The translations under genes were made by a program, and so were the position numbers. The notes below the pieces were generated by a model. It searched no databases. It was not told the DNA's origin and was given only the letters and a program-made list of their open reading frames with translations. A DNA stretch of 59,648 nt, filler included, from Streblomastix strix (Eukaryota), in NCBI GenBank assembly GCA_008636045.1. It is 3 parts of 3 records of this genome, joined end to end, with 100 filler letters (N's around TTAATTAATTAA, not from the genome) between each part and the next. Parts side by side here need not be neighbours in the genome. Positions count along the whole stretch, not along the records: positions 1 to 19,825 come from SNRW01000482.1; 2 more parts are not named here. One strand, 5' to 3'. Positions 3,866-39,838 of this stretch are shown piece by piece (positions within the stretch are counted from its first letter, which is position 1; each line of letters opens with the position of its first letter).

Positions 3866-6419
3866 TCATTCTTCAAATGAATCAAATTCGCTATCTTCAT
3901 TCGAACAAGATTCATTTTCTTAATTCGACTCAAATTCATTTTCTTCATCCGAATCGAATTCATTCTATTTTTCTTAAGATTGCTCTTTCTTCTCTGAAAT
4001 CGATATTTAATCCAATTTCTTTATTATTTCCATCTCTTCAATATCTTTCTTGCAATGTGGGCATTTCAATCCACGATCTTTCCACATATAAGAACATCCA
4101 AGATGGAAATTGTGACCGCATTTCATCAGAACAAGTTTATTATCTTCCCCATTTTTGTTTTTGTGGCACAACGCACATGAATGAGCTAATGGAATAATAA
4201 CATTCTTTTCAATTCCATCTTCTTTAATTGTATGCTCCTAAGAATCAAATATTTGTTTCGTGTGTATGATCAACCGATTAAATTCTGCCATTCCAGCTTC
4301 TTATTCATCATATGTTGTATACTAATCTCCTGCTTTTCTCCAGGGTAATCGAGTTACTTATCCCCCAGTCTTCTGGAAATCAATACAATATATGCAGTTA
4401 TTGAACCCTGGTTTAATAGGCTTTATTGATGTGTAACATTACGGGCATTACGCTTAACTCAATTAGAGATCGAAATCTCCAAAATGTGCGTTGAATATAA
4501 CCATGTGACCATGAGCTGGACATCCTTAATTTTCACATAAGCCTAATTTAAAATATGATAAAAAAAAATAATAAATAATAAAATTTTGTTAATCAATCGA
4601 ATAACTAAACTATTTTCTATATTATTGTTCAAATACCTTCAATGCACAATCCATGCGAGGCAACTCTCCACTAAGGACCAGATTTTGACCATTGTCTCTT
4701 CACGATCGCATCCGTCTTCCCAACATCAACAAAACTCATTGGCATTCCACCTCCGCGAAGACGAAGCACCAAATGAAGCGTTGCCTCTTTAAAAATGCCG
4801 TAATCAAACAAAGTTTTCCCACTCTCAAGATCTTTACCAGAAAAAATCAGCCGCTGCTGGTCAGGTTCAGTTCCTTCTTTTTACTGGATCTTCTTCTTCA
4901 CATTATCAATGGTCTCATTGTTCATTACTTCGAGGGCGATTGTTTTCCCTATTAATGTCTTTACAAATATTTGCATAGAAACACCAAATTATATCAGCAA
5001 AACTGAACCTTTCTCTGGAAACCCACAATCTTGAAGTGTTAAACTGTCATTCAAAGGTTTATATGAATCAGATAAAATGCTTATTGCTTTTGGAAGGTCT
5101 TTTGCTGCTTCCATAACTTTTGCTTTCATTTCCTTTACGGTCATCTTCCTTCTGACATCTACATCAAATGTATATGATGAGAGAGTATTAACTTTTAATT
5201 TGAAGGGGAAATCTTCATTCTTGTCAAAGATACTCAAGATCATACCATTGGAGACATTTTTCTGGCAAATTTTAACATTTTCAATCTATTCAATGCATTC
5301 TCCATAATGTGAAGTTGTTTCCCATCCATAAATTTCCAGATCATTTTATTGCCCTTAGAATCTTGCTTCATCTAAAATGATCTGTTTCAATTGCTTCACC
5401 GGAATTTGAGTATATATCTATTTCAAATCATATGTTTTTCCTTAGAAAACAATGTTTATATCGATAGAAGCATATTCCAGGGTAACAATTTCATCTCCCA
5501 CAATCCAATAATCTGAAATAGTCTTTTCATTCTGAAGTTCTTATTCTTCGCCATTTTCATCTTTCAACTTGAGAATCTGGCAAGAAGGATGAACGGTATC
5601 AAAACAATATATCTTCCATTTCAATGAGAGAATGGTATAGTCATCATCTATATAAACTTTCCTCTTATATTACTGAGTTTGTACGTAAATAGACATCGCA
5701 ACTTTATCAATGACCAGATTATTCAAATCATCACCATCAAATTCACTCAGAATCTTATTTGTATCCAATAAGACTCTATCTTTATGCATGAAATAACCAG
5801 ATGGATCAATTTGGGCTCTAAAACAAGCTCTCTCACAGATATCTTCAATTTTCTCATCATTCTAACAGGATATACGAATTAATTATCTGTTTGGCATACG
5901 AATATTCAGATTCGTTGGGCCAGTTTATAACTGAAGCTCGGACCATTCTTTTATTCCTATGTTTCTGACTTACTGATTATTTGAAATAACTTTGAAATTG
6001 AATAGCAATTTCTACTTTTCTACAGATATTTAACTTTTCAACAAGATTTTCTGTTTCAAGTCTAACACAGAATCGTTATTGTTGAATTGAACTTCTATGT
6101 ATTTATCTTAACTTGAGTCCAACCAAACCAATATAGAGCCTTTACTAATGCTTGCTTATACACAACAACTAAGCCCAGTGCTAAAGAATCCAGTTAAAAG
6201 TTCAACATGTTTTTCAGAATTATATCCCATCACTTCTTCTTGATTTGTTGTAAGTTCTATTATATTGCAATACTCAGAAATGATCGAAAGTTTTGCCATC
6301 CCTGCTCCAATATAGGATTAAATTTGCTGAGCTACTCCTAGCAGAGTTGTTTAAGAATCAACTACTTATCTCTGCATTTCTTACCCAGTGTGATCCCCAA
6401 CGAAGACTATACTTAACAT
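3866..6419 (-). CDS. Tandem ubiquitin-like-domain protein with near-canonical ubiquitin unit, Cys-rich domain, RING finger and acidic tail
   Basis: Open in table 6 from ATG 6419; several divergent UBL units, then [17 protein letters not shown]...[44 protein letters not shown] intron 4543-4636; RING CALC...[10 protein letters not shown]...KCPHC; TGA at 3866. An upstream exon cannot be excluded. Confidence 0.85.
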
Positions 6420-10310: not shown

Positions 10311-11084
10311 ATGGATAAATAATTAAGTGATTTAGATATTATTGATGAAGAAGAATAATCTATGTAATAAGAACAGGCAATTAAATTAATATAATTGTAG
10401 GAATAGTAATAAAAATACATAAATGATAGGAATAATTTATTTTAAATCATTGATTCAGAGATCATTAAGTACTTTAATTATTTGAGATAATTCTTTAAAA
10501 AAATCAAAGTTGATTTGACTAATTTTGTAACATTAAGTACTGATTAATTAATAACAGGAATCAAAACATTTTTATAACCAATCATTGCTAGTAAAATTGT
10601 TAAATAAGGTGGATCAAGTAACTAAATTCTATTAGCTAATGATGATACAATCGATAAAGATCAATTAGCCTATGAACCAATTGAGAATGCACGTTATTTT
10701 GCAATTGCATATGGAATGTATGAATAGCGAGTATGGAGATCATTAACAACATAAAATAGTAGAGTGTTTATTTCACTTCAAATAACTCGCTCAGATCCTA
10801 ATACAGTGTGGTAGTCAGGATATACTTTATTATCAATCGTTGATAGTACCATAAAACCAAAATTCAGTGGAACACCACATAACATACCATTAAATGCAGT
10901 TTTGTTTGCGTAAACAGTTATTGGTTATCCAATATGTTGGAATGGTGCTATTCCTATTGATTGTTACATTAATACTAATGGAAACGTTATAATAAATACA
11001 ATGTGTTAGCTAAGTTTGCCTGATTATTTTTGTGTATAAGTATGTGATTCATATGCAATTCATAATTAGTCGGCTAGTCAGTGA
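10311..11084 (+). CDS. Putative fibre/spike protein 1
   Basis: N-terminal coiled coil, tail-fibre-like motif FVTLSTDQLITGIKTF...KIVKQGGSSNQILLANDDT, beta-rich C-terminal head; open to TGA. Confidence 0.6.
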
Positions 11085-11273: not shown

Positions 11274-13217
11274 TCAAACAGCATTAATCGCACTACCAGC
11301 AAGCTCACCAATTACATCGATATTTAACACTTATGGATTAGGATTATTATCAAATGTAATTCGCATAAATGCATCGCATAGATAATGCATCATTGGAGTG
11401 ATGGATGCTTTAGTTGGATCAAGATAACTTCTCATAGCAATAAATTGGTTTAAATCATTTTAGTTCTATTCTTTATTTGAATCAGTATTATCTAATATTA
11501 CTTTAGTCAAATTACCATGTAAAATAACTTATATATTTGTTCTAGCACATAATTTTGAAGAATTATAGCCACGCATAAATGAATCAACAGTAGCAAATTT
11601 CCATGCAAGCATATATTTGTTAGGATATAGTGTTTTAGATGCTTTTGTCCCTACAAATAGTGTAGACGTATGAAATATATTCACATTGTCTTTCCCATAA
11701 AAGCCACCAGTTTTATCAGTGCAATAGAAATTTTCAAATGTAAGTGAATGATATAGATCTGATGGAGCACTAACAACATCTTAATCAACGATATAATCAA
11801 ACATTAGTCCATTAGCGGTTTGTGTCAGTGCTTCATATGGTGCAGGAATAACGTGTCGTTAATCACAAACTAAATCAAAATCATTAAGTAATATAGGATA
11901 AAACCAAGTTGGATACAATGACATGCCAAACGTCATGAATAGTGATTTAATATTAGAGAATGACATAATACTTTACATAGCTCCACTTGATTCAAAACCA
12001 CTAAATGGGAAATTTGATGATTAAAATCTAAATACTTAGGTAGGAAAATTAACTATTTTTTACTCTCTAATCATATTAATTATTGCATCTTCATTTTCAA
12101 CATTAAAGCTTATATTCTATATTTCTAATTTTTCAAATCGTGCATTATTAATTTAACTGATACTATTCTATGGTAATCTATCACATAATGCAGTATTTTA
12201 CATGTTGACTATTCGTACATTAAATTTCTTATATGCAAATACTGCTTAAGCAGTTGGTTCAGCTAATAGATATACTATGTCTAGTTTCTCAGGTGGAATC
12301 ATGTGATAAGCTTAGTGTTTATTTTTTACAGCATCAGTTTTATTGAGCCAAACTACTTTCAAATCTTATAGATAATCTTATATCCAGGGCTATAGATGAA
12401 GTTAAACATAATTCCGAGTAAGAACAGGAAATGAGTTAAAGATTGGATTTAATTAATTAAGATCAAGAACACCACTAAATGTGATATCAAATGGAATTTT
12501 AAAATACAAAGGAGTTGTAACTGATTATGTATCAATATCAGATAGATGAATTTCAATAAATATTCCACAATGACGTTTACCATTAATGATGCTTCCTAAT
12601 TGAGAAACACTAACGCTATTACTAGTGCATAAATCACTCAATGAATTAGAACTAATAGCAGCTTATTCTCTGGCATATATTGAAGTGCCCCATAATGCAG
12701 TGGCATCACGCATCAATTGAAATTGGTGAAATGGCTACCACGCAGTTGAGAATCCAAGCCAAAAACGTAATTGCTCAGATTTCTCTTCTCTTTCTGCTGT
12801 TTTACCATAATACTTTTATTCGGCTTATGTCATACTTTTTGCAACAAGAGCTTATGAATCTTCTAGTCCATTGAAGTTAATTCTCTTATTATATTCACCA
12901 TCTTCAAGATTTGTTTCATTTAATTATATCACTAATGTATTTCCAGGAATGGTAATTGTCCAATTTACTTAACATGTTTGTACCATTGTACAGGTGGCTA
13001 ATCCCCTTGCTCCTAGTGGTGCTCTAGTATATTTAACTCCACCAGATGTTAGTTCAGTTACTAGTTAATCGGTGAATTATTGCTCGGAAATTGAAAATGA
13101 TTCAGCATGAATCGTTAATGTTTTTAATATTTCACCTAATTACATATAACCAGCAACGTAATCAGAGTGTTACATTTTTTGCAAATGGGCTAAATAATCA
13201 CTAGATTTGAATGACAT
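11274..13217 (-). pseudogene. Putative major capsid protein (~650 aa), at least one frameshift
   Basis: MSFKSSDYLAHL...to ...IDVIGELAGSAINAV-TGA; beta-rich, well conserved in copy 2 (37005+), size and context fit a double jelly-roll MCP; the fold is inferred, not demonstrated. Confidence 0.6.
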
Positions 13218-13283
13218 TTCAATAAAACAAAAATAACTGTATGCTGATGACGATAATGATAATAAATTTTATATTAAATCAAA

Positions 13284-13493
13284 ATGGTATTCTTCTCTGG
13301 AATTGCGAATTTTGGTTCGAAAATTTTAAGCGGTGTTAAGAAAGCAGCGCAATGGGTAGCACCAGCATTACATAAAGTTTTATCAACAATATCTGGCCCA
13401 GTTGGAATGATTCATCCTGCTATTGGTGGCGCATTAGGTGCAGGAGCTAATCTTGCTGGTGCTGTTGATCGACTAGCAAATAAGCGTAATTGA
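13284..13493 (+). CDS. Small amphipathic-helix protein, adenovirus pVI-like membrane-lytic candidate
   Basis: MVFFSGIANFGSKILSGVKKAAQWVAPALHKVLSTISGPVG...; intact, divergent from the MCP gene, homologue at 36963(-). Confidence 0.75.
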   Translation: MVFFSGIANFGSKILSGVKKAAQWVAPALHKVLSTISGPVGMIHPAIGGALGAGANLAGAVDRLANKRN

Positions 13494-13513
13494 TGTAATT
13501 TATTTTTGAAGAA

Positions 13514-15831
13514 ATGAACAGTTCATTATTGTAACAATAAATCCGAACAGTTAGATAGTTAATCACTAACGATATTGCTTACTATATTTAATATTCGAAA
13601 CGTGGTGGATCAAGTGGTGGAATGATGTCGAATGATGAATACCAATTATTCAAAAATAATAACAATGCATTAGTCTACGCTGCTAACAATTAAATCATTG
13701 ATGGAATTGCATCAGATTACGCATTAAAAATAGATACTCTGGGATTACTAATGATAAAGAATTTGAAAGTGACTAATTTTGATTTTGTCGCATAGATTAA
13801 TTAGTTGATTAATTAAGTGAATTTATTATAACAATCAATTGGAACAACAGAATAGGATATCACTGATATAAAAAATGATATTTATACAATTAATTAAGAA
13901 TTGTCACGATAAGCACGTTTCAGAGGATATTATTTATTGAATACAGATATATAAAATTTACCTAATTCCGCTAATGGATATTTTTCATTTAGTGCGGAAA
14001 GTGGAACAGTATGGATGTATGATGCAGATTGTTATAATAGTGGAGATATTGTACCTGATTAAATTACACCAGCAAGTGATGCAACTCCTCTATCTGATGG
14101 TACAGCAACTGCAGGAATTAGCACCGAATATTCACGTGGGGATCACATTCATCCCTAAAATGTAACAATTACTATTCCACCTAGTGATTCTGCTAGTGGA
14201 TCAGTTGGTTCAACTAATTATTATGCCAGAAACGATCATTCTCATCCTATCAATATAACAACTACCATATCACCTCAAGATAGTGTTAGTGGATCAATTG
14301 GAATAACTAATTATTATGCTAGAAACGATCATTCCTATCCAATTAATGCAGAAACTAATGCTTCAAATATTCCTATCGTTAATGGTGTTGGTGCTAATGG
14401 AACATCAGCTTTTACGCTAGACATGATCATGTTCATCCATAGCAATTGACATATGATGGTAATGTTACGGAAACTAAGTTCATTAAGACAGGTGAAACTG
14501 CTTCAGAAGTGCTATGTGCCAATGGTGACACAACTACAATAGATAGTAAGTTATTTCGTACATATACAAGTAGTGGATGGATTAGATTATGTGTATTTCC
14601 TGCTTGTGATGGTATTGGTAATCCATTCATTGAATTTAAAATATATACATCTTATAATGCTGTTCAAATCATTAGACTATAGCCTTATTATACCGTCAAT
14701 GGAATCAATACTGTATATAGAGTATTTATGGCTCCAACTAGAGTTACTTCATAATATGTGATTGAAAATGGAGCACGTTCACCATTTCATAATCATTCTG
14801 GCTCTGGCACATCAGCTGTATATTAAGCAAATATTCAATTAGAATCGGTTGGTTCTATTACGATAGTTGTATCTGATAAATGTACTTATTTTACCAATAG
14901 AATCACGGAGATATTAACGTAAGATGTGGTTACAGGAGTATCAAGTGGAACAGTAATACCTATCAATTATAACTACGGATATGGTGGGTTTATGTAAAAT
15001 ACTTTATAAGTTAATCCAACAGATCGAACAAAATCCAGCTATAATAATGGTATTAGAATCGGAAATTTTAGTAATGAATCAACAACATATTTAGCCTGTA
15101 GTAATACAACAATTAATACTGTACAAGCAGGTCAATGGGAAATAAGTAAAATAAGTGATAATGCACTTACTATAAACCCATCATCTCTACGAAAAGCTGA
15201 TCATAGTGTTGGTTTAAGTATTAACGGTGATAGTTCAATAATAAAATTTAATGGTAATGAGTTAGTGAATGTCGGAACTGATTAAATAATTAATGGAAGA
15301 AAGACATTCAAAAATGACTAGTTTGAGGTATAACTAACAGATTCAAATTATCCATTATTAGTATTTAATAATAATAACCATTATTTGGAGTAAATGGTAA
15401 ATGGTAATGAATTGATATTGACTATTGATACTAGTTTACAAGTTGGTACTCCATTATATATTAATTGGCGGGGGAATACTTTAAGTACATAATACCCTGA
15501 TTCTAAATTAGTCACTAATTATGTTTTAAATGCAGGTTTATCTACTTCGTTTGCTGGTGTTACTTGTGGTGCAGTTTAAATTAATCCAAATTGAAACAAT
15601 TTTAATGAAGGATTAAGAATATCACGTTCTACCGTTAGTAATTATAGTGGAATTTATCTAGGGTGTAATCCAAGTTAAACTAGTGGAGCATTAATAGATT
15701 AGTGGAGTATAATAAATGCACCTACTGACGAATTAAGAATTGGAGTTGGAGATTAACTTCTTAATGATAATTTAGGTTTAATAATATCCGCTGATGGAAA
15801 TACATTATCATTCAATAAACGAACATTATGA
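13514..15831 (+). pseudogene. Long fibre protein 2 with phage-tail-fibre-like HxH repeats
   Basis: Coiled-coil N-terminus; repeats YSRGDHIHP, YARNDHSHP, YARNDHSYP, RHDHVHP; KFIKTGETASEVLCANGD; TDQIINGRKTF; ends GLIISADGNTLSFNKRTL; frameshift near 14412 and internal TGA near 15592. Confidence 0.7.
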
Positions 15832-16912: not shown

Positions 16913-17927
16913 ATGACACTGCAAGAATTATAAGATATAACATTTACGAACTAGGATCCATTGAATGAATATAAAACTACGCCAATAACGAAGAATTCGT
17001 TGTTTCTTATTAATGAAAATCATTATATTGTAGGAGCTGTTGGAAGTGGTAAAACAACATTAATGTGTAAGCTAATTGTGATAAATAAAAAAAATCATTA
17101 ATCCATACATATTATACTTCTCGAATTATGGTGCAGATGAAACTATGGCATTAAATCTTAATAGTAAGAACATTTAACTAACTAATGTAACTTATGGAGA
17201 AGCAATGATATTTCTACCTGAATTTGATGAGATAAAATACCGTTCTAAAGAGATGTATACATGGTACAAAATGAATGAACAAAAATAATCTTATACAAGT
17301 GATTTCATTAAGCGAATGGAAGAATAGATATTATAGATTAATGAGATAAAAAAGAATGAAAAACCTAATGATTATCTTAATTGAATTGCTGAACTATTCA
17401 AATAAAAACTAATCGAGACCATTAATACATATAGTTAACCAACCAAGATATTGAGATTTGATATTCCAGCACTAATTCAAAACGTCAGTTATTAAAATAA
17501 ATTCAAAATAGTTGATGAGGATTAAGTTGACATAAAAATAATTAAAATACCTATTTTAAAAAAAGCTTAATTACTCCATACACTAATGCTCTTCGATAAT
17601 AAAGGATCTAATGCAGACATTTAACGATTCAATTCATAACTCTTTAAACAATAACACTTCTCGTTAGTGATTCTCGTCATTCAAAAATTCTATTTTCTTT
17701 ATTGTTTACCGTCCATTTTATTTGTTTATGATAGCAGGGATATTAACCTATGTAATTTGCTTAGGCGATAATATTGGTGAAACAGATCTAAGATAAGTGT
17801 ACGATGAAAATACCATATAAAATTTAGATTTTTATGAGTTCCAATTATTATACAACACATTAAAGAAATATGAGTTCATCATACTCAATAAATGGATGGG
17901 AAAATTAGAGATTCTCAAAAATAAATG
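16913..17927 (+). pseudogene. A32/FtsK-HerA-type genome packaging ATPase
   Basis: Walker A YIVGAVGSGKTTLM (~17024-17065), Walker B-like TLMLFDN, SRH motif; frameshifts. Confidence 0.85.
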
Positions 17928-17932
17928 AACAT

Positions 17933-19825
17933 TCACACAAATGAATAGTCCTTGGCAGTTAATCAATACATATATGGGCAACAACTCTAATTGGAAAGTA
18001 CGATTGCTTTAGTATATATACCAGTGATTCTATTTTTTTCGATAGAAAACTGACTCATCTAATGATTCTTCTATCCTAATCTCATATTAGTGCATTTCGT
18101 TATCTTTCCTTCATTAATGCAATCGACTATATAATCTTTAGTGATTTTGTTAGTCTTCTAATTAACTCCTTTCAATTTTATTTTTGAATCATCGCAATAA
18201 TTTTTGAATATGATATAATTTTTAGGAGCTAATGCTATCATTGATGGTCCTTATCGTTCGATTGCTAATGCAAGGATTTTCTTCTCATAATAAACGTCTG
18301 ATTTAATTGTAGGGAAGAAGTATTTATCATTATCGTTATAAAAATCTCTATCATTAATGACAGCATTAAAATACTAAGTAAAATCTTCAATAGGATTACC
18401 ACTAATTGCCTAATAAGCTGAATCAGAATCTCCTTCAATAAAATGTATCCGATTCATATCTAAGCATTTATATATATGAAGTTATATATGAAGTTTAGAT
18501 ACCAATATTTAGCATTATCTAATACAAAGAATGAAACTTATAAAGGAGTTTTACAACTGCAAAGCTCAGGATTCATTTATACAATATAACTGTTTTCAGA
18601 TATCTTTTGTTCATCCATGAAGGCATAAGATCTAATTGCTATTTCTGTTTACTTTCTATTCATTATTTTAACTTTATGATATTTCTCTGTATTCATTCCA
18701 TCACTACCATATGAGCTATTCATAACTATCTTAAGTAATTATTCTTATCCTTTATTCTCATCTAATTTTGCTTCAATTCTGTTCTTAGTAAATTCCTTAA
18801 TAAATGAATTGAATTAATCATGTTTATTGAACAGAACCATATGCTTTACATAATCTATAATAAAATGACAATCATCAATTAAGAACCATAAATAATATGA
18901 GCTAAATGCCATGAATTCTCCCATCGTTGATGATAGATTAGTTAACTTTCTTTATTTTTGGTCAGTCTTAATCGTAATATCTTTCATATGTTTATACAAA
19001 TAACTGTCGATATTTCTTTCATCAGTTGTGAATTCGTAATTCCTTAGAATAGGTGGGAAGTTAATGAAATCGTTAATGTATTTGTCTTAAATATGACTTT
19101 TGACTTCTGCAATAAATAATCTTCCTTCTTATATAAATCTCCTATTGCTATTAATTATTCGTAGTATAGTTTATTTTGAATGGTCAATATTACCCTCAAT
19201 CTTTCCTGTTTATGATACACACATATACATTTTACCACCAATGCATTTAATAAATTTATTTGGCTCTGATGACATAACACTAGTATATAAAGAATTAAAA
19301 TCAACACCAACTACATGAGTTATTCGATAATCAGTTGTTAAAACAGTAACATATTTATTTATTTTGTCATATTAGATTCGTTTTATCAAATCAATTCCTG
19401 ATACATTTACTCTATGCGTTACATTTGATAATCCACCTGTGATGCGTTTCCTAATTAAATGATATACATCAATATCAGTAAGATTAATTGGTAAACATCT
19501 AATCATACAATATTTACGTAATTATACGAATAATTTACCTATATTTATGTCTTTGTTTGAACAAAAGCAATTACAATATAAATAACGTGGTCGAACGTTA
19601 TCTTTTGAATGACCCTTTGAATTGTCGATTCTATCAAATGTCGGTTTATTAGCAAAAGTGAGTTTACATTCGCAAATGTTGCAATTAAAATCTGTGAATA
19701 ATTATTTGAAATATTCCAAATCACTATCTTTTACATTTTTTGTTTTTTCTCTTCTTTATTGTTTATCTTAGGCTTAATATCGCCTCACTTTACTCTACCA
19801 ATATTTCTCTGTTAAATAAAATTTC
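17933..19825 (-). CDS. polB: Protein-primed family B DNA polymerase (C-terminal part; 5' end beyond contig; premature stop near end)
   Basis: ITGGLSNV; motif A VGVDFNSLYTS; motif B KIVMNSSYG; motif C FIEGDSDS; IALAPKNY; KLKGV. Confidence 0.92.
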
Positions 19826-19925
19826 NNNNNNNNNNNNNNNNNNNNNNNNNNNNNNNNNNNNNNNNNNNNTTAATTAATTAANNNNNNNNNNNNNNNNNNN
19901 NNNNNNNNNNNNNNNNNNNNNNNNN
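19826..19925. other. Artificial contig linker
   Basis: N-run, TTAATTAATTAA, N-run; 100 bp. Confidence 0.98.
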
Positions 19926-33843: not shown

Positions 33844-33872
33844 TTTTCGATTTATTTTTACGATTAATTTAA

Positions 33873-35036
33873 ATGGATGACCTAGAACTTCCAACCGAGG
33901 AATAATTATAAGCGATAAAAGATGAACTAGATAAAATTAGTGAAATAAAAAACAAATAAAAATAATTTGAATTATTATGTGAGAAATTGACGCCCTTCAT
34001 TGAATAATAAATAATTAAGTACTTTACTTATTTTTATTAATATATCAAGAAATCAAGAGATTACGTTACACCAGATACAGAATAAATAATAACTGGTAAA
34101 AAATAATTAACGCCCTAAAAGTTAAATATTTAACTAGTGTAATTCGTGCAAACTTAAGTGAAATTATCGCAGATGATATTGAAGCAATATAATTTATGTT
34201 ATCTGATGGTATTTTAAATTTAATATTACAAAATAATGGAGATACAATAGATTTCGATTAATTTTTACTAAAATAACATCCATTTGCTTTTGATGACCTA
34301 ACTCAATAGCCAATTCCAGACATTGATTCCAAATTAGGTGGATTTTAAATATGTAAGGGAATAGATAAAAATTTAGATAGAAATATTTATTTAGGAACTA
34401 ATTTTTATAGCAGTATAATTATATTTGATACCCATCTTTAACTAATTCCTACATTAGAATATGAATAGGCGCTATCATTGAAATATTCAAACACAACTAC
34501 TGGATTTCGTAATGAAAAACCATTTCAGATATAGAAAATGAGTGATGTAAATAATACAAATAAGGAATTATATATTGATAAAGATTGAAATTAATTAATA
34601 TTCAATGGATAAATTATTTCACCATAAACTGCGAAAAGGTGGGCAATTTCATGTTGCAGATAATGTAACTGTGCCAACTTAAGATTCATTAGCTTTGCAT
34701 AATATTTGAATTGTTTATGTTAGCTTTTATCTCCATTGGACATCTAGTGATGGGACATCTTACGATCAAATAATAATGGGGAACGTTGATGATGATTTTA
34801 TCTCTAAATTTTTCGATACACTATATATGTTACATTCAACTACTTCATCAGCTAATATAAATTAATATCCGGATTGTATAATAATTTAATAAGAACAAAT
34901 AATTATTAATTTAAATTCTCATACATCAATTCCAGCTTCACTAAATATGGAAATTAACGGGATTTATTTTTCCAATAATGTTGCAAATTGAAACCAATAA
35001 TTATAGAGTTAATTTCAGGCTCCGAGAAAAGGTTGA
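33873..35036 (+). pseudogene. Fibre protein 1 homologue with a different C-terminal region
   Basis: MDDLELPTEEQ... and DYVTPDTEQIITGKK match the N-terminal part of the 10311 ORF; downstream sequence not alignable by eye. Confidence 0.55.
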
Positions 35037-35059: not shown

Positions 35060-36092
35060 AAATATTTTGATAATTAATTGTTACGTTAATTTCAACGTTT
35101 AAATATTTCGTAAGTATTTAATGATTTGTTTATTAAGATAAATTCAAATTTATATAAACTGTTATAAATATTGATTAATTCTTATTCATTAAATTCTTAT
35201 ACAATATTTTTTACATTGATTTATTTCAAATCTTATTCTGATATGTTAGCCTCAACTACAATTACGTGGCATTATATAAGAGCTGGTTCAAACAAATAAC
35301 ATGGCCTTTACGTTCAAAAGAATATGGTATTTTTACTAAGCCATCTATCGGAGACCAAATGAGTAATTGATCTAGCCAGCTCACTAGTGTATCGTTAAAT
35401 ATCGGTATTAGACCCAATATCATCAAATATCATTAATGTAGAAAGTAATTATGGGTTCATAAGTAAGGTTATTTTTTAAAATTCTTATTCTCCGTCTTGT
35501 TCTGCAATTTTTTATTTCTTAGAATATTAAACCTATATAGTTATCGGGGGAACAATGAATCGCATAATAGATGTGGGCTAACTTAATTCATTAATTTTTT
35601 TTATAGTCTCCATTTGGAAAATATCCCTTAATCTATGTTAATATTATTTATCTGTTTCTTATTCGCCATGTTAATCTTTTTATTTATTATTATCAACTAT
35701 TGATTCTTTCATTCTAGTTATATAATCTGAGTCATATTTCATATCTCGTTCTTTTAATTTCCAATAGGTATATATTTCTTTTACTTTATATTTAACTTAA
35801 TCGAATTATGGTAGAAAAGATTGAGCTTCTACTTAAGTAATATTAATTAATTTTATACCTTTATTATTTAATTTAATCGCCATTGTCTCATCTGGTCCAT
35901 AGCTAGAGAAATATAATATGTATGGATTAATGTACCGTTAATATAATACAATTAATTATGCCATTAATGTTGTTTTACCACTTCCTACAGATCCAACTAT
36001 ATAGTAATTTGCGTTAATAAGAAAGATAGAATGTGATGCTAGTAGCCCAATTTTATATTCTTCTAGTTATGATTAATCGTCGAATTGTACAT
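35060..36092 (-). pseudogene. A32-like packaging ATPase, copy 2
   Basis: YYIVGSVGSGKTTLM...INPYILYFSSYGPDETMA...TLMIFDDIG. Confidence 0.85.
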
Positions 36093-36128
36093 TATTTATT
36101 TATTGAGTATTCATTTAAGTAAATATAA

Positions 36129-36829: not shown

Positions 36830-36963
36830 AGATAATTAGACCCAAGCGGCCCAGATGCAGCTCCTATAACTTTATGTAGCACCAGTGCGACCCTTTTAGC
36901 TGCAGATGTTACTCCATGTAAAATTTTTGAACCGAAATTCTTGAGATCTGACAAAAACCCCAT
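36830..36963 (-). pseudogene. pVI-like amphipathic protein, copy 2 (3'-truncated)
   Basis: MGFLSDLKNFGSKILHGVTSAAKRVALVLHKVIGAASGPLG. Confidence 0.75.
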
Positions 36964-37004: not shown

Positions 37005-38750
37005 ATGTCGTTCAATACATCAGATTATTTATCCCATTTATCGAAGACCTCACATTCCGATTATGTTTCATCATACTCTACACTAAATGAAGTGCTAAGA
37101 ACTTTGACAATTGAACCTTAATCATTCGCAATATCCAAATAGAAATTTTTTGACTAACTAAGAAATATTTTAATTTCTGGCGGTACTAGATAGACTAGTG
37201 CTCCATTAGAGGCTTGAGGTAGTGTTAATTATTGTAGTGTCTAGACTTATTAAGTTAATTGGACAATAACTATACACACTAATAGTTTAGGTATGTAACT
37301 AAATAAAATAATTACAACATAAGGTATGTTATGCTCTATAGAATTTTGTCGAGCGAAAACTAACTTCAATGGAACTGCAACAGCTACAACAGCTCTAGCA
37401 GATGGCATTAAATAGCCAACATAAAAATACAATGTTTGTGAAATGCTGAAATTTTGGCTAGGGTTCTCAACTACCTGTGGTTCTTTCTAACAAATAGCTA
37501 TTTGTCATGATAATACAAAACTTTAGGAAACTTCAATTTACGTTAGAGAATAGGCGATCATTTGTTCTAATTCGCAATCTGATCATACCATTAATAAATT
37601 AGTTTCAATTTCATCTCTTGAAAGTATAGTTTAGGTTATGCGTCACTGCGGTGTATTTATTTATATTCCTTTGGTCGACATTGCTGCCGCTTCTGCAAAA
37701 ACTGCATTTTATTATCGCAATCCCAAAGATATTACATTTTCTGGATTAATAGATTCGAATTAACTTAACCCTATTTTTAATGAATTTCCTGCTCTTAATA
37801 AAAATTATGCCTCGTTATATTTGTAACTTTGGATGACTGATTTCCTATAAGATTTAAAAATAATTTGATTAAATAAATCATTTCACTCATTTGATACTTT
37901 TTTTAGCTTACACTATGATACCAGCGGAGAAGTAAGATATAATTGCACTTTTGAATGATAGCGCAACACCTGCCAATGTTTAATTTTCAGTTTGATTGAT
38001 TAATTGTAAAGATTTAGATAATGCCGCTTCAGATCCTAAAAATAATATATAATAAATTGATTCAGCATATCTTGATAATCAATCTATACATAATTTATGT
38101 TTTACAATGGAAAATGAAATGTCAATCATTGATATGATTAGAACATAAAAGGTAATAAATTTCCCAATGTAAGTACTTAAGACACAATCAACTAAATATC
38201 CTATGTCCGGATCTCAAATTTAAACAATAATATCATTCTCTAACATAAAAAGTGTATTTATGACATTCGCTATGTAATAATATCCCACATGGTTCTTCCC
38301 ACTTTTACTGAAGAAAGATAACTTAATCAATGACTAAAAACAGTCGACACCCAATATTTATGAAGCACTTACCACTGATGTTTATGGATCAATGTTTTAA
38401 TGTTTTGTTGACTAAAATATTGTATCTGCACCATCTGATCTTTATCGTTCACTTACTTTCGAGAACATTAATATGAATGATAAGATCAATTCATACGGAA
38501 AAGATGATGATATAAATGTTGAAACATAAGATAACATATTTTATAAGACTACACACTTTAAGGGATCTAAAACAATTAGAACGTACAACTCAAATAAATT
38601 TATGCTTGTATAGAAATTAGCTACTGATGGCTCGATTATGCAAGGCTATAATAGTAATAGAATATGTGCCAGAACAAATATATAAATGGTTCTTCTTTAT
38701 AACTTTATAAACTGGTAGACAAAAGTTCGTCGAAATTTTTTTAAACATTT
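37005..38750 (+). pseudogene. Putative major capsid protein, copy 2
   Basis: MSFNTSDYLSHLSKTSHSDYV...RHCGVFIYIP...LNPIFNEFP; colinear with 11274-13217; stops and frameshifts, 3' end lost. Confidence 0.6.
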
Positions 38751-39738: not shown

Positions 39739-39838
39739 NNNNNNNNNNNNNNNNNNNNNNNNNNNNNNNNNNNNNNNNNNNNTTAATTAATTAANNNNNN
39801 NNNNNNNNNNNNNNNNNNNNNNNNNNNNNNNNNNNNNN
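39739..39838. other. Artificial contig linker
   Basis: N-run, TTAATTAATTAA, N-run. Confidence 0.98.

Follow-up and report, generated by a model that had tools for sequence, protein, structure and literature searches.

What does a gene of 69 codons do beside the capsid gene of an endogenous virus in a protist, and could its product help a particle through a membrane, as the helix with lytic activity in adenoviral protein VI (pVI) does? The question is raised by a stretch of 59,648 nucleotides of Streblomastix strix DNA (GenBank assembly GCA_008636045.1), here called the window, by which we mean the whole stretch that was analysed; it carries Maverick/Polinton-like endogenous virus copies of this species. 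In adenoviruses the amphipathic helix of pVI (about residues 34-54) lyses endosomes, and the pVI gene lies beside the hexon gene. A preliminary description of the window had proposed that the small gene at 13284..13493 encodes a membrane-penetration protein of this kind. We find a real, selectively maintained gene of a Maverick/Polinton-like element. For its product we predict a place in the virion and an activity on membranes that is probably similar to that of the pVI lytic helix, and to this reading as a whole we would give a probability of roughly 0.55. A role in crossing a membrane appears likely because a conserved gene adjacent to the capsid gene carries the motif of the pVI helix.

We read the window with TAA and TAG as glutamine, because among the codes tried open reading frames (ORFs) of at least 150 amino acids arise only under translation table 6, which gives 79 of them, with none under table 11 and none under table 4. 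The protein homologues of the window's genes bear the organism name Streblomastix strix, which the text of PMC10120064 describes as an oxymonad of termite guts with the TAA/TAG = Gln code. Linkers of the form N44-TTAATTAATTAA-N44 lie at 19826-19925 and 39739-39838; the window is thus three contigs joined end to end, gene order across the linkers is unreal, and the two copies of the small gene sit on different contigs, copy 1 on the first and copy 2 on the second. Each lies next to a gene for a putative major capsid protein (MCP), in the following arrangement.

13284..13493, + strand: small gene of 69 amino acids, copy 1; ATG at 13284, TGA at 13491-13493, no in-frame TAA or TAG; begins MVFFSGIANFGSKILSGVKK
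36841..36963, - strand: small-gene remnant, copy 2; first 41 codons, MGFLSDLKNFGSKIL..., starting MGFLSDLKNFGSKILHGV at 36963
13218..13283, no strand: divergent spacer of 66 bp from MCP start to small-gene start; presumed two-way promoter region
11274..13217, - strand: MCP-like gene, copy 1; 647 amino acids from the ATG at 13217 (a 633-aa database model begins 14 codons later)
37005..38706, + strand: MCP-like gene, copy 2; in two or more frame pieces; 49% identity with copy 1, no match for the final ~77 residues (tblastn, ORF pieces)

The start, stop and length of the small ORF are as the preliminary description gave them, and so is its head-to-head placement with the putative MCP gene, which holds for both copies; in copy 2 the spacer measures 41 bp, from the start of the small gene at 36963 (-) to the MCP ATG at 37005 (+). 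The homologue described for copy 2 is likewise present, but it matches copy 1 over 41 residues only (58.5% identity), beyond which the family similarity is gone. Longer proteins close to the copy-2 form exist elsewhere, P0298 being an example.

The length of so small an ORF is uninformative on its own, because TGA is the only stop codon here, and the case for a gene is made by its variants. We collected these from contigs at least 80% like the gene, in three public termite-gut runs from three studies, using the best-supported variant letters. Within the ORF 33 of the 38 variants are synonymous under table 6 and 5 are non-synonymous, with only 52.7 of the 207 sites synonymous; because of this bias we regard the small gene as being under strong purifying selection, and a chance ORF, which was also considered, is ruled out by it. 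Insertions and deletions are listed in the spacer (at 13240, 13246, 13248 and 13281) and from 13488 on, and none in the ORF up to 13487. The comparison of copies by dN/dS that the preliminary description had suggested points the same way, giving 0.21 between copies 1 and 2 over 41 codons, a value to be read with a pS of 0.64 and synonymous sites near saturation. Selection of this kind fits an element that evolved as a virus.

Conservation across other copies, another expectation of the preliminary description, is borne out on a wider scale. A word-indexed search returned 70 clusters of homologues of 52-102 amino acids, at 67-100% identity and 68 of them named S. strix, and an exhaustive profile search of 1.84 billion proteins found 108 representatives at E<=1e-3, of which 54 reach E<=1e-10. 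Ten distant members carry uninformative names and lie on short metagenomic contigs. Scans of IMG/VR with three family alignments yielded no relatives of the small protein, nor did a scan of metagenome contigs with the alignment of S. strix members only, and for the window's own protein neither Pfam (E<=1) nor PHROGs gave a usable match. Several of the longer, distant members (98-110 amino acids; P0321, P0331, P0335, P0341, P0345 and P0362) have a C-terminal D/S-S-P-R-I-x-(L/F) motif in common that is not in the S. strix or L065 forms and could be a cleavage or capsid-binding site.

The related contigs also show where the window's copy is itself unusual. Codon 23 (13350) is CAA in the window and TAA in nearly all related contigs, both meaning Gln; because of this replacement we take the element to use its host's reassigned stop codons. 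Residues V2, S16 and A65 of the window copy are atypical, the related contigs reading G, G and V. Position 13288 is G in every related contig, giving a Met-Gly start; Gly2 is strikingly conserved, occurring in 43 of 52 aligned S. strix homologues and, when 31 diverse members are compared, in 90% or more. The preliminary description had spoken of an MG variant, possibly N-myristoylated. The MG start does exist, but it is the usual form, and copy 1 of the window, with Val2, is the exception. The N-myristoylation pattern is G-{EDRKHPFYW}-x(2)-[STAGCN]-{P}. After Gly2 most S. strix members have Phe, which this pattern excludes, and its position 5 is taken by Lys, Arg or Asp in many of the distant members; only the peptides of the L065 type (L065 and L066, MGLWDSIK) fit it.

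Across lineages the small gene keeps its place next to the capsid gene, but not its orientation. The two genes adjoin in three lineages, namely two diverged S. strix lineages and one distant lineage with the standard code. In S. strix records, five pairs of peptide and MCP have locus tags 1-3 numbers apart, on contigs of equal size (compared by eye). A scan with the MCP alignment led to three metagenome loci with MCPs 27-30% identical, the standard code and a GC content of 32-34%. In L065 and L066 (standard code, MCP 27% identical) the MCP gene is closely followed by an ORF of 69 or 68 amino acids that begins MGLWDSIKNFGSRIF; in L065 only, an ATPase-like ORF comes after it. This peptide aligns with the S. 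strix family in hhalign at 95.1% (E 3e-8 over 32 columns), and without gaps over 61 columns. Pfam has no match for the L065 genes.

We take the neighbouring 647-aa ORF as MCP because several of its 189 homologues are called 'Major capsid protein' by UniRef, because its protein-atlas feature score is 0.95 to Capsid_N/Capsid_NCLDV clusters and to a 522-member Parabasalia cluster, and because S. strix MCPs are reported, in the text of Bellas et al. (PMC10120064), in the 'Metamonada' group of Maverick-Polinton elements. The copy-1 protein has no Pfam match, and an AlphaFold model made with 32 S. strix homologues (pLDDT 37.6) was too poor to confirm a double jelly-roll fold.

The build of the small protein suggests a membrane-active peptide. 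Copy 1 begins with a cationic amphipathic helix holding a ..SGIANFGSKIL.. motif, continues into a Gly/Ala-rich hydrophobic segment and ends in a basic C-terminal tail, with a net charge of +6. The amphipathicity check named in the preliminary description came out in favour: the maximum hydrophobic moment, at residues 3-20, is 0.565 on the Eisenberg scale and 0.587 on that of Fauchere-Pliska (of 5000 shuffles, 96 and 14 respectively came as high), and the former is no lower than that of the pVI helix by the same calculation (0.50-0.52). AlphaFold gives a single helix over residues 3-68 (pLDDT 73). Among the 31 diverse members the pattern is MG-(F/L)-(F/W/L)-x-x-(L/I/V)-(K/R)-(N/D)-F-G-(S/K)-(K/R)-(I/V)..G(V/I)KK...V(A/V)P(I/V)V.K, and across the family the N-terminal ~20-35 residues form a cationic amphipathic segment. 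Each of the weak look-alikes (cecropin, frog peptides, orbivirus VP5, and the VP4 penetration proteins of dicistroviruses and seadornaviruses) is either active on membranes or amphipathic. The Gly/Ala-rich segment spans residues ~36-61 and has a moderate hydrophobicity; on the Kyte-Doolittle scale 19-residue windows peak at 1.13-1.26, under classical transmembrane hydrophobicity. A classical transmembrane protein was considered and is ruled out on these values, as is a signal peptide, since lysines break up the N-terminal segment and it has no hydrophobic core of the secretion type.

How close, then, is the likeness to pVI? Our comparison used a set of 12 mastadenovirus sequences, verified by the Pfam MCPVI model (L002 at E 4.8e-101, L001 at E 1.3e-40). 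Profile-profile alignment places family residues 2-16 on pVI residues 39-53. With S. strix members only, hhalign gives 50.8% (E 1.6e-4, 15 columns); with the independently found L065 and L066 peptides and copy 2 added, 88% (E 3.1e-6, 15 columns); and with the 31 diverse members, 64.7% (E 6.2e-5, 21 columns). Column shuffling as a null (250 runs) gave scores with a mean of 12.9 and a maximum of 24.0, against an observed 39.1, which none of the 250 reached. When the 31 members were aligned with pVI one by one, the N-terminal motif fell in this same register in 24, 4 of them at 70% or more and 9 at 33% or more, and the remaining 7 align elsewhere on pVI or not at all. P0303 has WSGLKNFGS, nine residues identical to pVI variants. 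For P0357, MCPVI is the sole Pfam match at E<=0.1 (E 0.088, 13.1 bits, residues 7-56 on profile positions 30-77), a match below the 28.4-bit cut-off of that model (PF02993).

Several results weigh against reading the small protein in this way. The pVI sequences had been chosen by the motif itself, which served as a degenerate DNA pattern for retrieving them from IMG/VR. The similarity is limited to 15-21 residues, and when the remaining ~55 residues were paired with pVI tails in 20 local alignments, the p values against shuffles ran from 0.036 to 0.52 and none survives correction. MCPVI gave no match to the window's protein (E<=1) or to any of 52 S. strix members (E<=10). A pVI HMM scores real peptides at 7.7 bits or less, which 3-10 of 20,000 shuffles reach and which is not significant database-wide. 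In whole-PDB HMMER searches pVI was not found with the S. strix-only profile; in a further search pre-protein VI came last of 16 matches (E 2.4), and in another it appeared at E 0.057-1.5 among 48 matches headed by designed amphipathic barrels, with tape-measure proteins included. Motifs of the type W-x-G-I-K-x-x-F repeat in phage tape-measure proteins. Neither a maturation protease nor an integrase was found, by Pfam and further search, in the parts of the elements that lie within the window. Membrane activity is here a prediction from sequence. The profile similarity to pVI N-termini that the preliminary description expected stands in pairwise profile comparison, then, and does not extend to membership of MCPVI or to database-wide significance (E 0.06-2.4). 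On this sequence evidence we leave the small protein outside the pVI family; its helix may share an ancestor with that of pVI, in our estimate at about even odds or a shade better, but the mechanism that we propose does not need such an ancestor.

Some observations on the motif itself may be set down here. At pVI loci (e.g., L002:594-1343, - strand) it is followed by a weaker second copy, I-K-N-F-G-S and then I-K-N-Y-G-S, according to a second BLASTP segment, and a short tandem duplication may lie behind the pVI lytic helix itself. On an 83.6-kb IMG/VR contig (L068:2661-5288, + strand) an 876-aa ORF without a Pfam match has M-W-D-K-I-K-N-F-G-S-S-I-F and then a long Ala/Gly-rich stretch; the build is like that of the small protein, but set within a large protein whose virus is much larger. 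Phage tape-measure-like proteins with repeated W-x-G-I-K-x-x-F were seen in L064 (several in tandem), L006/L017, L012/L014/L016 and L077. Because such units repeat in these proteins, caution is in order, the motif not being unique to pVI. A scan of IMG/VR for W-x-x-I-K-N-F-G-S-x-I returned adenoviruses, phage proteins and chance ORFs, with no Maverick-type relative among them.

Since a pVI-type motif recurs in phage tape-measure proteins, it could have arisen by convergence. The small protein would then be an unrelated, cecropin-like cationic amphipathic peptide, its motif set by similar biophysical demands, and it might act on bacteria or other cells. The nearest named atlas cluster is indeed Cecropin-A (0.78, to be taken as a lead only), 3 of the 31 members match Pfam Cecropin (best E 0.034) and others match frog peptides, the top PDB matches are designed amphipathic helices, and nothing beyond the motif is significant. 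We consider this the least probable of the alternatives. The N-F-G-S core, which amphipathicity does not require, is the most conserved part across lineages whose MCPs are 27-49% identical; one member has nine residues in common with pVI; in the small protein as in pVI the motif stands at the mature N-terminus and the gene lies beside that of the capsid protein; and no hydrophobic core like that of a signal peptide is present to allow secretion.

A second alternative keeps the protein in the virion or at the membrane and gives it a different job: a capsid cement or tape-measure along the inner shell, an internal-membrane protein, or a viroporin or holin-like release protein. An extended cement or tape-measure shape is what the single AlphaFold helix over residues 3-68 resembles; the TMP repeat is the Pfam family matched by the most members (4 of 31, at E>=0.3); three solved tape-measure proteins turned up in the PDB search (best E 0.0057); and an amphipathic helix with a hydrophobic Gly/Ala segment and a basic tail would also suit small pore formers. 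These tape-measure matches are weak and driven by periodicity, no 19-residue window reaches transmembrane hydrophobicity, which argues against stable membrane insertion or a holin, and the best specific match is still the pVI lytic helix, in register in most of the diverse members. Such a job strikes us as rather improbable, if the strongest of the alternatives weighed here. As between entry and exit, the data do not discriminate.

The remaining alternative would change the gene itself. In some 100 database models (P0191-P0289 among them) codons 1-64 of the small gene are fused, through predicted introns, with the fibre-like gene that follows it, and if they are right the function changes, a point against our reading. 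The fibre-like genes around the capsid gene are these.

13514..14449, + strand: fibre-like gene A, directly downstream of the small gene; ATG at 13514 or 13493; coiled coil and YARNDHSHP-type repeats
14728..15594, + strand: fibre-like gene B, an ORF; fibre-type segments run on in long database models
10311..11084, + strand: third fibre-like ORF, on the far side of the MCP gene; 257 amino acids, ITGIKTF-type motif, no Pfam match

The three (at 13493-15594 and 10311-11084), which surround the capsid gene, have coiled coils, repeated Y-A-R-N-D-H-S-H-P-type units and an I-T/N-G-x-K-T-F motif, and in this they recall phage tail-fibre proteins. Some relatives of gene A are named 'Tail fiber protein' by UniRef, and the third ORF has a weak counterpart in copy 2 at 33870-34103. 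The upstream segment QQIRTVRQLITNDIAYYIQYSKRGG of gene A is conserved as coding in other copies, in another of which (a loose end at 13535) the fibre has its own ATG 10 codons upstream of that segment.

On the fused models, codons 1-64 would be a first exon spliced to the fibre, the helical domain anchoring the fibre in the capsid vertex or shell instead of lysing membranes, possibly in a mixed form in which alternative splicing gives both products. The models are numerous: 101 longer S. strix database proteins (122-737 amino acids) carry the domain, 64 of the 99 newly retrieved ones start MG(F/L/C)(F/W/L/C), and of 37 with a clear ..NLAGxVDRL end 34 switch to fibre sequence right after DRL, which implies a predicted intron from codon 65. 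Codons 65-66 read GTA AAT in other copies, which could serve as a GT donor (all related contigs show 13477 C>T); the window has in-frame YAG acceptors at 13547-13549 and 13556-13558; and one model, P0218, is without a Met near the conserved fibre start. The predicted acceptors, however, differ between copies (KRGN, YSKR, YQKR, QIRTVRQL and others), and many models splice out QIRTVRQLITNDIAYYIQYSKRGG, which other models translate and which is conserved as protein, so that the joins look like improvisation by a gene predictor. Introns of S. strix have A, U and G highly conserved at donor positions +3 to +5, according to the text of Slamovits and Keeling 2006 (PMC1501061). The donor GTAAAT deviates from this consensus at +4 and +5, and the window's own copy has GCAAAT. 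The VNKR end with TGA directly behind it persists in three loose-end consensus sequences with mutually different DNA downstream; in the window (13514), as in the other copy just mentioned, an ATG of the fibre frame's own stands shortly before the conserved segment; and in L065 the relative of the small gene is followed by an opposite-strand ORF and the ATPase-like ORF, with no fibre. Because acceptors are inconsistent, the donor is off consensus, the fibre has its own ATG and the VNKR-TGA end is conserved, we think that the fused models are mostly artefacts, and a first exon of the fibre gene seems to us an unlikely account of the locus, only a little less so than convergence.

We return to the small protein as a free-standing, pVI-like penetration protein and to the way in which it might work. 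It would be packaged with the capsid and released during entry, once a phagocytic or endocytic host had taken up the particle. The N-terminal amphipathic helix would then lie in the membrane interface, and the Gly/Ala-rich second half, which is like a fusion peptide, may aid insertion or self-association. Rupture of the vacuole membrane would let the particle or its DNA escape. Because the helix stands at the very N-terminus as translated, no proteolytic unmasking should be needed, unlike in pVI.

More tentative is an evolutionary extension of this idea, which we would place somewhat short of an even chance. The pVI lytic helix may be an ancestral part of the virion module common to Polintons/Mavericks and adenoviruses: a free-standing Met-Gly 'proto-VI' of 68 amino acids beside the capsid gene, widespread in Maverick-like viruses of protists, which could have become pVI once a propeptide, removed by a protease, and a long C-terminal region had been added. 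Mavericks/Polintons are regarded as viruses, and as ancestral to adenoviruses and further DNA viruses of eukaryotes. To our knowledge, their particles have hardly been seen and their route of cell entry is not known. Were the proto-VI idea true, the few genes that link adenoviruses with Polintons would be joined by one for an entry protein, and metamonad Mavericks would make particles able to breach a host membrane; were the homology real, the set that adenoviruses and Polintons have in common would grow from assembly proteins (capsid, penton, protease, ATPase) to entry machinery. A small gene under strong purifying selection, adjacent to capsid and fibre genes and with the signature of the pVI helix, offers a concrete and cheaply testable hypothesis of entry. 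The analysis also delimits a family that has no Pfam model and comprises at least 108 representative sequences, and flags about 100 S. strix database gene models as probable fusions of two genes.

The element around the small gene is of the Maverick/Polinton type, in that the gene adjoins an MCP-like gene in an element with a packaging ATPase-like gene and a protein-primed PolB. Its further genes in the window are the following.

16913..17648, + strand: packaging ATPase-like gene, copy 1; frameshift near 17090; in two frames 46-50% identical to the ATPase of copy 2, which is intact (tblastn)
17963..19506, - strand: PolB, copy 1; Pfam DNA_pol_B_2 at E 3.2e-9; protein-primed, split, cut by the contig end at 19825
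35314..36114, - strand: packaging ATPase-like gene, copy 2; 266 amino acids, Walker A GSVGSGKT

Against Pfam the copy-2 ATPase-like protein has weak P-loop matches only (best E 0.0019, all under the cut-offs), and the copy-1 gene translated in a single frame has 14 stops. Between the two elements the MCPs are 49% identical and the ATPases 46-50%, alongside the 58.5% over 41 residues of the small protein (tblastn). Copy 1 is partly decayed, its ATPase gene frameshifted and its PolB split, with the capsid gene and the small gene intact. To the left of the element, at 3866-6419 (- strand), lie host-like genes, among them one for a 596-aa protein with a ubiquitin domain (Pfam E 2.6e-41, four ubiquitin stretches) and then a C-terminal extension, and one for a RING-finger protein (Pfam E 2.9e-6); the left boundary of the copy-1 element must fall between about 6500 and 8400.

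As to precedents, the literature that we found on the topic does not describe the small-protein family, and a full-text search with motif words gave nothing relevant. Searches of the text of PMC10120064, of a vertebrate Maverick study and of a 2026 preprint on the diversity of Polinton-like viruses turned up neither protein VI nor a membrane protein. The nearest parallels by description are in adintoviruses and adomaviruses, whose Polinton-related virion modules likewise include a small membrane-active protein: the accessory virion genes PLA2X, GasderminX and Cupiennin-like are membrane-active, and adomavirus LO6 is a pVI/pX-like protein (PMC8502044; 10.1101/341131). A figure legend also labels a gene 'VI' for a non-animal MELD virus (PMC8502044). 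Unlike the gene discussed here, those genes are in animal viruses or in other MELD viruses of protists and fungi, with none reported for metamonad Mavericks in the text of these sources.

Among RNA viruses, the VP4 of picornaviruses and dicistroviruses, reovirus mu1N, nodavirus gamma and the N-terminal helices of orbivirus VP5 are similar in being small, in starting with Met-Gly, in having an amphipathic helix and, presumably, in leaving the capsid, and there are weak Pfam echoes of Orbi_VP5 (E 0.032), Dicistro_VP4 (E 0.16) and Seadorna_VP4 (E 1.4). Unlike the small protein, however, these penetration peptides are cut from capsid precursors, and there is no significant sequence similarity; myristoylation, which is typical of VP4 and mu1N, is not predicted for most members of our family. 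The tape-measure repeats of phages (Pfam PF05017, TMP repeat, matched weakly by the four members noted above) are built of the same kind of W-x-G-I-K-x-x-F amphipathic unit. In tailed phages these proteins are long and carry many repeats, whereas here a single N-terminal unit stands in a protein of 68 amino acids, in the neighbourhood of a eukaryotic-virus capsid gene.

The comparison with pVI remains the closest. In pVI a viral protease removes an N-terminal propeptide, and the C-terminus supplies a cofactor peptide. The small protein has no counterpart of either: its motif starts at residue 2-3, and the chain ends 55 residues on in a basic tail without Cys. At 68-69 amino acids, against 238-279 in pVI, it is without the 33-residue propeptide and without unmasking by a protease, and the window's 69-aa form has no PPxY motif and no C-terminal protease-cofactor peptide. 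The S. strix gene is also divergent from its capsid gene, not co-directional with it, and the host is a protist with a different genetic code. In common with pVI are a gene beside that of the major capsid protein, a cationic amphipathic helix at the N-terminus of the mature chain with a similar hydrophobic moment, and the core motif (L/F)(W/F)SG(I/L)(K/A)NFGS(K/T)I. The pVI feature of an amphipathic helix with a ..LWSG(I/L)KNFGS.. core near the mature N-terminus is found in the sequence, and membrane lysis is the activity that it predicts.

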